From NCBI RefSeq assembly GCF_044647545.1, contig NZ_CP172818.1: a stretch of DNA of 64,000 bases; one strand, given 5' to 3'. Every line of letters starts with the position of its first letter. The first letter of the stretch is position 1. The notes beneath the pieces were generated by a model. It saw only the letters and a list, made by a program, of their open reading frames with translations, did no database searches and was not told the DNA's origin. This document shows, one piece after another, positions 56,975 through 57,006 of this stretch. The position numbers and the translations under genes were made by a program. This DNA comes from Escherichia coli (lineage in GTDB: Bacteria; Pseudomonadota; Gammaproteobacteria; Enterobacterales; Enterobacteriaceae).

Positions 56975-57006
56975 ATTTATGCAATATGCTGTCTGATTGC
57001 ATAAAT
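56975..57006. promoter_or_regulatory. Perfect 11-bp inverted repeat (atttatgcaat N10 attgcataaat), candidate operator upstream of dtpD
   Basis: Exact reverse-complement arms read directly from sequence; about 90-120 bp upstream of the dtpD start. Confidence 0.35.

Follow-up and report, generated by a model that had tools for sequence, protein, structure and literature searches.

A conserved inverted repeat on the dtpD core promoter of Escherichia coli as a candidate arginine repressor site with unusual box spacing

What is a perfect inverted repeat doing between dtpD and ybgI in Escherichia coli? The stretch analyzed here, referred to as the window, comprises 64,000 nt of contig NZ_CP172818.1 (assembly GCF_044647545.1), and an earlier note based on its letters alone had described, upstream of the dipeptide permease gene dtpD, a perfect 11-bp inverted repeat with the geometry of a dimeric regulator's operator, to which no regulator could be assigned. 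The repeat is there as described and gains one further base per arm, giving two arms of 12 nt each that are 100% complementary. The gene was also named correctly, the locus being that of E. coli dtpD and ybgI. We hypothesize, giving the idea an even chance, that the repeat is a repression site of the arginine repressor ArgR in which the spacing of the boxes is non-canonical; judging from the sequence, dtpD is probably shut down when arginine is plentiful. The elements concerned are the following, with signed positions counted from the transcription start site (TSS) of dtpD.

56974–56985, left (dtpD-proximal) arm of the repeat, TATTTATGCAAT, at +13 to +24 of the dtpD transcript region
56986–56995, spacer, ATGCTGTCTG, 10 nt, at +3 to +12
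56996–57007, right (ybgI-proximal) arm, ATTGCATAAATA, at -10 to +2, overlapping the dtpD -10 hexamer and the start site
55403–56884, minus strand, coding sequence of dtpD (ybgH), a proton-coupled dipeptide permease and the candidate target gene of the site
57155–57898, plus strand, ybgI

The inverted repeat is non-random. Perfect repeats with arms of at least 12 nt and spacers of at most 30 nt were counted and compared with dinucleotide shuffles: the window holds four, against a mean of 0.23 per shuffle. Two of these have 13-bp arms (at 13743 and 45345), are G+C-rich with 4–6-nt spacers and read as terminator stems, and the remaining 12-bp repeat (55358–55386) is similar to a repetitive extragenic palindromic (REP) element. 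When only the 270-bp intergenic region is considered, 0.7% of shuffles contain a repeat whose arms reach 10 nt or more, and for arms of 12 nt or longer the analytic calculation predicts 7.7e-4 repeats. Across the window, no second exact copy of the 11-mer half-site occurs, and its matches with up to two mismatches (25, versus 25.2 expected) are at chance level, so that the half-site search proposed in the earlier note uncovers no dispersed motif there. The equivalent of the repeat in MG1655 (NC_000913.3) is 742,646–742,679; the window strain is not K-12, and its intergenic region differs from that of BW25113 at two positions, both outside the repeat.

Kim et al. 2012 (PMC3415461, supplementary file 2) mapped a dtpD TSS to NC_000913.2 741892 on the minus strand with 3 reads, and the same entry gives a 113-nt leader and the upstream sequence ...GCTAATGTATATTTATGCAA. 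Transferred to the window, this TSS lies at 56997 on the minus strand, with a 5′ untranslated region (UTR) of 113 nt. The repeat therefore spans -10 to +24 of the dtpD promoter, with its dyad at about +7/+8 and about 135 bp upstream of the ybgI start. Placing it upstream of dtpD was right as to the gene; with the Kim et al. TSS, however, it sits on the core promoter and not merely upstream. The -35 element is poor, and a simple promoter scan was silent here because the site scores 8/12, which is under the cut-off.

57004–57009, minus strand, putative dtpD -10 hexamer TATATT, 5/6 matches
57027–57032, weak -35-like ATATCA of dtpD

In being non-random, in lying on a promoter and in belonging to a block that is conserved between genera, the repeat resembles an operator, a conclusion that we regard as supported. 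As for its possible ligand, a literature search with the site's own sequence returned nothing for E. coli; it did retrieve the ARG operator of Chlamydia pneumoniae, which contains ATTGCATAAATATGA, and for this reason a formal test for ArgR boxes was made. A symmetric matrix was built from 20 boxes of 10 MG1655 operators (carAB, argE/C, argR, argA, argI, argF, artJ, artP, argG and argD), each operator's boxes being located as the best consensus pair with a 2–3-bp gap. These genuine boxes have leave-one-out scores of 4.5–21.7 bits (median about 15.5). Two ARG-box-like elements contain the arms of the repeat.

56968–56985, Box L, ARG-box-like TCTGATTATTTATGCAAT, at +13 to +30, 14/16 of the consensus WNTGAATWWWWATTCANW, 17.95 bits
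56996–57013, Box R, ARG-box-like ATTGCATAAATATACATT, at -16 to +2, 14/16 of the same consensus, 18.95 bits

Box R is the best 18-mer of the entire window on this matrix and Box L the second best. A random 18-mer would score 17.7 bits or more with a probability of 4.6e-7 under the composition of the genome, or of 4.4e-6 at 39% G+C; scores of at least 14 bits occur at only 4 positions in 540 kb of DNA flanking 80 enterobacterial loci, and the promoters of dtpD paralogues stay at or below 7.1 bits. The arms each make up the inner two-thirds of an 18-bp site that is itself semi-palindromic, and the inner 8 nt of the arm, TATGCAAT, are identical to the end of the strong artJ and artP boxes. The symmetry of the repeat is perfect because Box L and Box R are near-identical copies in opposite orientation. 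The dimeric geometry suggested before is thus not what we see: the arms are parts of 18-bp elements of the type bound by the hexameric arginine repressor. To hold that no regulator can be assigned from the sequence was likewise too pessimistic, since ArgR is the regulator indicated by the matrix, by the pattern of conservation and by public expression data alike.

Three further matches to the matrix are recorded for completeness. An ARG-like 18-mer, GATGCGTGTTTATTCATA (13.3 bits, 56868–56885), lies over the dtpD start codon about 112 nt downstream of the TSS and probably reflects the codons ATG AAT AAA. The next-best matches in the window are TTAAAATTAATATTCAAA at 37025–37042 (16.1 bits) and TTTGAATAAAAAATGACT at 32662–32679 (14.8 bits).

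ARG boxes overlap -10 and/or -35 elements, and ArgR represses by excluding RNA polymerase, being a poor roadblock (PMC6640053). Box R covers TATATT at -12 to -7, taking the TSS of 3 reads, in line with this overlap rule; boxes over the -10 and +1 are typical of promoters that ArgR represses strongly. We infer ArgR binding, the resulting repression and an accommodation of the 10-bp spacing, and the mechanism would run as follows. With arginine plentiful, arginine-bound ArgR would occupy Box R over the -10 hexamer and +1; Box L (+13 to +30) may give a second high-affinity contact, either to that same hexamer, held in an unusual geometry, or to another one. This would deny RNA polymerase the promoter and repress dtpD a few-fold.

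Is the site kept across genera? A DtpD scan of 100,044 species genomes gave 80 loci, among which 54 are dtpD orthologues (at least 82% identity). Divergent ybgI accompanies 52 of the 54; the exceptions are L019, a Klebsiella contig that is truncated and leaves only 52 nt upstream, and L048, a Silvania locus without a ybgI or phr match. In all 52 orthologue promoters scanned, the minus-strand sequence TGTATATTTATGCA (-14 to -1) has at most two substitutions and in nearly all it is unchanged, and GCATAT follows a few bases downstream in every genus, including Klebsiella, Raoultella, Pluralibacter, Yokenella and Kluyvera. Box R scores 10.6–19.8 bits in all genera examined, and in Yokenella it has ATTCA in place of ATGCA, nearer to the ARG consensus. 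Of the 12 positions of the left arm, 10–12 are kept in Escherichia, Citrobacter, Pseudocitrobacter, Superficieibacter, UBA5654 and Intestinirhabdus; the arm is degenerate in Salmonella arizonae/diarizonae as well as in Kluyvera, and Klebsiella/Raoultella/Pluralibacter lack it. Conservation in orthologous promoters, named in the earlier note as a check, is hence found in all genera for the ybgI-proximal arm but only in the Escherichia/Citrobacter-type lineage for the dtpD-proximal arm.

The second box differs between lineages in a defined manner. In promoters of the Klebsiella/Raoultella/Pluralibacter type, a strong Box R is followed after a 3-bp gap by a weak second box of 5–8.4 bits, the same canonical pairing of strong and weak boxes as at artJ and artP. 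This second box is usually the best downstream one, except that in two Pluralibacter-type promoters a 14-bp position scores marginally above the 3-bp one. Promoters of the Escherichia/Citrobacter type invariably have their best downstream box at 10 bp, with scores of 18.0 bits in E. coli, 16.1 in E. albertii, 14.3 in UBA5654, 13.3 in Citrobacter (8.1 in C. sedlakii), 8.6–12.0 in Pseudocitrobacter and 5.5–6.5 in Salmonella. The spacer keeps a constant length of 10 nt in every genus that has both boxes; within it the ATGC beside the left arm is invariant and other positions vary. About 4 nt distinguish the two promoter types, GCATATT[GCAT]AAATAATCAG. We tentatively propose a more specific picture, one that we find doubtful though worth stating, in which the Escherichia/Citrobacter dtpD promoter carries a non-canonical ArgR operator of two inverted, near-identical, high-affinity boxes 10 bp apart, a spacing conserved across several genera, that may have evolved from or beside the canonical 3-bp design of one strong and one weak box still present in Klebsiella-type promoters.

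The same comparison can be read without any dedicated regulator. Box R might be kept because it contains the -10 hexamer and the start, perhaps along with an ancestral ArgR site; the second arm would have arisen by a templated quasi-palindrome mutation and persisted because something else conserves the first 60 nt of the 5′ UTR. A strand switch that copied the other arm would yield both the 4-nt difference between promoter types and the perfection of the arms. Substitutions in the arms are non-compensatory and merely lower the symmetry; Citrobacter, Salmonella, Kluyvera and some E. coli strains tolerate changes that break it, and in Escherichia, Citrobacter and Salmonella the whole of +1 to +62 is conserved, spacer included and not the arms alone, a conservation that extends neither to the remaining leader nor to the -35 side. 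Within E. coli, 5240 of 5426 complete genomes have the 46-bp stretch of boxes and spacer unaltered, and about 180 genomes carry a difference; in strain N96, an A to G change at 56979 disrupts the symmetry as well as one of the conserved box positions. The upstream flank is at least as invariant within the species as the site itself, and because of this within-species polymorphism does not separate the readings. What speaks against such an accidental origin is that Box L keeps 13–18 bits in several genera, with a chance of about 1e-5 to 1e-6 per position, and that dtpD mRNA co-varies with ArgR targets. We consider it unlikely, if the least unlikely of the alternatives to an ArgR site.

Another possibility is the operator of a dimeric or tetrameric regulator other than ArgR, recognizing TTATGCAAT-N10-ATTGCATAA and blocking -10 to +24, with the ARG likeness coincidental or confined to an ancestral Box R. 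Symmetry over 12 + 12 bp is perfect, the 10-bp spacer is fixed across genera and misfits canonical ArgR, and the position is classic for a repressor. However, no candidate protein is known for this role and no regulator gene is adjacent. The outer flanks TCTGAT and ATACAT, beyond the perfect repeat, are conserved as well, which fits an 18-bp ARG box and not a simple-repeat model, and dtpD expression follows the ArgR regulon. We therefore regard a different regulator of this kind as improbable, one step further down the ranking.

Public expression data provide a view that does not depend on the sequence of the site. From the PRECISE compendium (Sastry et al. 2019, Supplementary Data 1) we used the first 49 samples and 28 comparison genes, of which three strong ArgR targets, artP and tsx were picked beforehand and the 23 others by row proximity. 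dtpD mRNA is low, at 3.0–5.6 log2 transcripts per million. Its three best Pearson correlates among the 28 are artJ (0.87), argF (0.84) and carA (0.77), followed by xynR (0.76), and when the growth-arrest samples (DPD, paraquat) are left out, argF (0.64) and artJ (0.60) remain at ranks 1 and 2. The ArgR regulon drops in three independent contrasts, namely glutamine versus cytosine as nitrogen source in MG1655 and in the BW25113 nac deletion, plus one discordant replicate; dtpD changes there by -1.43, -1.07 and -1.18 log2, and argF and artJ are the only genes with the same behavior. The drop is not shared by artP, which is weakly repressible.

Other patterns appear in the same samples. The gene xynR (b0272) lies directly downstream of argF on the same strand and tracks it, as expected of read-through from the argF promoter, which ArgR controls. 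ybgI mRNA is anti-correlated with dtpD (r = -0.56). With cytidine as nitrogen source, dtpD is about 1 log2 lower, independently of the ArgR-like signal.

Cytidine brings in CytR, whose operators have a comparable layout. The octamers TATGCAAT-N10-ATTGCATA resemble the SELEX consensus AYGTGCAAC-N(10-13)-GTTRCATT and could form a CytR operator acting cooperatively with CRP at an adjacent CRP-like site. Each matches GTTGCATT at 6/8 positions, and their inverted orientation and spacing conform to the CytR rule, which accepts inverted or direct octamers with a spacer of up to about 4 bp or of about one helical turn (PMC3454398). A CRP-like 22-mer (56954–56975, 15/22, one of only 2 window sites at this score) ends 5 nt from the octamer, and anaerobiosis induces Shigella ybgH along with tsx, nupC, nupG and udp. 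A 6/8 match in a 12-nt arm nevertheless has an estimated chance of about 4%, and 575 window positions score at least 6/8. There is one CRP-like site only, centred at about +33.5, with no second at the expected distance, and the element occupies -10 to +24 instead of a place between upstream CRP sites, from which CytR exerts anti-activation. Cytidine versus cytosine gives -1.06 and -0.32 log2 for dtpD, in contrast to +0.45 and +1.38 for tsx, although the test is weak because the cultures were grown on glucose; a CytR–dtpD regulatory link is also absent from the searchable literature. CytR is a very unlikely occupant, in our estimate.

A last alternative needs no specific regulator: the repeat could be a structural or nucleoid element, that is, a cruciform-prone palindrome, a pair of H-NS nucleation motifs or an RNA hairpin. 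As single-stranded DNA, the repeat folds at -8.6 kcal/mol (z-score -3.66), and TGCATAAATA matches the H-NS motif TCGATAAATT at 7/10 positions. Yet this H-NS match is at background, with 549 window positions scoring equally, and a 10-nt loop with AT-rich 12-bp arms disfavors cruciform extrusion. No RNA hairpin is possible because the dtpD TSS lies inside the upstream arm, of which only 2 nt enter the dtpD mRNA, and the ybgI TSS is 135 bp from the dyad; a terminator was rejected on the same grounds. There is no T-tract, the terminator scan did not report the repeat, and Rfam has no match at it, its only match at E <= 1 being a chance S15-leader at 56722–56845, off the repeat. We give a structural role the lowest probability of all.

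Several observations weigh against ArgR as the regulator of dtpD, and we set them together here. The foremost is spacing: a gap of 10 bp separates the strong boxes of E. coli dtpD (28 bp between their centres), the gap in all 10 reference operators is 3 bp (2 bp at argR), and the spacer between ArgR boxes is described as fixed (PMC4381063, PMC6640053). The E. coli 18-mer at the canonical 3-bp position scores -2.1 bits. The expression link is correlative, resting on 28 genes and 49 samples without added arginine or an argR deletion, and in the BW25113 nac deletion, cytidine versus cytosine raises argF, artJ and carA by 1.1–1.9 log2 and changes dtpD by -0.3. The TSS on which the promoter overlap depends is supported by 3 reads only, and part of the Box R conservation is expected anyway, the -10 hexamer being inside it. 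Finally, no ArgR–dtpD link was found in the searchable literature, which does not extend to the target tables of ArgR chromatin immunoprecipitation; it contains no mention of an ArgR site at dtpD, and databases may already record one.

A canonical partner is not hidden elsewhere among the positions considered. The inward-facing 3-bp positions of both strong boxes in E. coli score -2.1 and -23.5 bits, the partner position on the -35 side of Box R scores -19.5 bits, and the remaining outer position (56947–56964) agrees with 6/16 consensus positions, counted by eye. Canonical ArgR boxes share one face of the helix; the 28 bp between box centres exceed the canonical 21 bp by about two-thirds of a helical turn. 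Because the E. coli spacing rule is broken in this way, we do not class the dtpD site as a canonical ArgR operator but as an ARG-box pair of variant architecture. The range of dtpD expression, about 1–2 log2 versus 3–8 log2 for argF and carA, is also narrow.

Arginine control of a peptide permease would be coherent with what is known, since ArgR represses the arginine uptake systems artJ, artPIQM and hisJQMP (PMC6640053). DtpD is one of four E. coli di/tripeptide permeases, and deleting all four impairs gut colonization (PMC10936423). If ArgR acts at dtpD, a dipeptide permease joins the arginine regulon, peptide uptake is tied to arginine status and a transporter is added to one of the best-studied bacterial regulons. 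If it binds both boxes, either the hexamer adopts a geometry undescribed for E. coli or two hexamers sit on opposite faces. The dtpD promoters offer a natural test of how strict ArgR is about 3 bp, as related genera hold the 3-bp or the 10-bp version. Should ArgR not bind, the conserved promoter palindrome would be of local interest only.

Other regulators were considered at the same promoter. Cra is the only one reported for dtpD in the searchable literature: it shifts the dtpD promoter fragment in an electrophoretic mobility shift assay, and dtpD is listed as Cra-repressed (PMC8085971). By its sequence, the site of Cra is likely to be the following element, which adjoins the repeat from outside.

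57015–57028, plus strand, Cra-like half-operator GCTGAAGCGTGATG, at -18 to -31, between the -35 and -10 elements

It matches GCTGAANCGNTTCA at 8/12 positions with a perfect left half, and it is specific to E. coli proper, being found neither in other Escherichia clades nor in other genera. LexA was rejected: 56995–57014 matches the 20-mer consensus at 15/20, via its AT-rich centre only, and ends in ATGT and GCAA, so that the near-invariant CTG and CAG of CTGT-N8-ACAG are absent; the published 'LexA' label of a dtpD clone is based on a BPROM prediction and a weak mitomycin response. FNR was set aside as well (a half-site only, downstream of the TSS), along with NsrR, PurR, Fur, TyrR, MetR, Lrp, Nac, ArcA and PhoP, all with background consensus scores, GalR, with a predicted site at 741888 in the coding region and outside the repeat, and sigma-54, for which no GG-N10-GC fit at -24/-12 was seen by eye. 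Upstream of the weak -35, a near-palindrome, GCAAATTG(T/C) at 57033–57044 (-36 to -47), or GCAATTTGC in Citrobacter, is conserved across genera. It sits 23 bp from the -10 hexamer and hence is not a normal -35; it could be an activator site.

The leader of dtpD shows a second conserved segment, immediately downstream of Box L.

56951–56975, at +23 to +47, conserved block beside Box L with the CRP-like 22-mer, an IHF core and a GATC palindrome

In Escherichia, Citrobacter and Salmonella, the larger segment 56936–56975 (+23 to +62), GTGTTTCCTTAAAGTTAAAACTTTGATACAGATCTGATTA, is conserved as well as the repeat, and Salmonella keeps it better than Box L. The IHF core, TATCAAAGTTTTA, is perfect and runs on the minus strand from 56963 to 56951; a 9/9 match occurs at only 4 window positions. 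An FNR-like half-site TTGAT and the GATC-containing palindrome CAGATCTG complete the segment, which could be a protein site or a 5′-UTR RNA element. The half of the leader near the Shine–Dalgarno sequence (56895–56935, +63 to +103) diverges between genera. Its hairpin apparently differs in each genus, CACG...CGTG and GCAAC...GTTGC in E. coli and CTCACGACAG...CTGTGTGAG in Citrobacter (by eye), which suggests a stem conserved in structure.

On the other side of the intergenic region, ybgI has its own start, mapped by Kim et al. 2012 (PMC3415461) at NC_000913.2 742021 with 8 reads and a 29-nt leader.

57091–57119, plus strand, ybgI promoter TCGACG-N17-TATGTT, with its TSS at 57126

Here GGCTATCGACG and GCTATGTTA persist across almost every genus examined, including those with a different dtpD side; Yokenella and a few metagenome-assembled genomes are the exceptions. 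A 21-nt direct repeat of 71% identity (57072–57092 and 57114–57134) overlaps this promoter. At the 3′ end of dtpD, comparison of 55330–55434 with the BW25113 locus (L001, 2370–2518) indicates that the window strain is without about 111 bp present in K-12 between phr and dtpD, including the phr stop codon and a REP-like element. Because of this loss, the phr open reading frame has 495 aa (472 aa in K-12) and overlaps the convergent dtpD 3′ end by 32 nt, and the 12-bp repeat CTGATAAAACGC/GCGTTTTATCAG at 55358–55386 is the surviving REP-like hairpin, now within the extended phr reading frame.

How does the candidate ArgR site at dtpD compare with known systems? The closest are the ArgR operators of artJ and artPIQM, which use the same 18-bp semi-palindromic TGnAT-W4-ATnCA boxes, artJ AGTGAATTTATATGCAAT and artP ACAGAATAATTATGCAAT both ending in TATGCAAT. 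They also share with dtpD the overlap with the core promoter and a target that is an uptake system, and they are repressed by exclusion of RNA polymerase. The differences lie in the arrangement: the artJ and artP boxes stand 3 bp apart over the -35, whereas the putative dtpD boxes stand 10 bp apart, inverted into a 12-bp repeat, at -16 to +30. With argF, argI, argECBH and carAB P2, dtpD shares box sequence, a position over the -10 and/or -35 and mRNA co-variation. These arginine biosynthesis operators have a 2–3-bp spacer (PMC4381063), and it is the Klebsiella-type dtpD promoter, with its weak second box, that fits the canonical spacing.

The CytR operators of deoP2, udp, nupG, ppiA and other promoters share the inverted TGCAA/TTGCA octamers, the tolerance of a spacer of about one turn and a CRP-like neighbor; unlike them, dtpD has no flanking pair of CRP sites, carries its element on the start site and is not induced by cytidine. 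Precedents do exist for ARG boxes outside pairs spaced by 3 bp. One is the isolated third box of argG, which scores 16.1 bits and lies about 100 bp upstream of the pair, and the other is the single ARG box of the ColE1 cer site. The lone boxes of cer and argG act with other partners or at a distance, whereas dtpD presents two strong boxes 10 bp apart.

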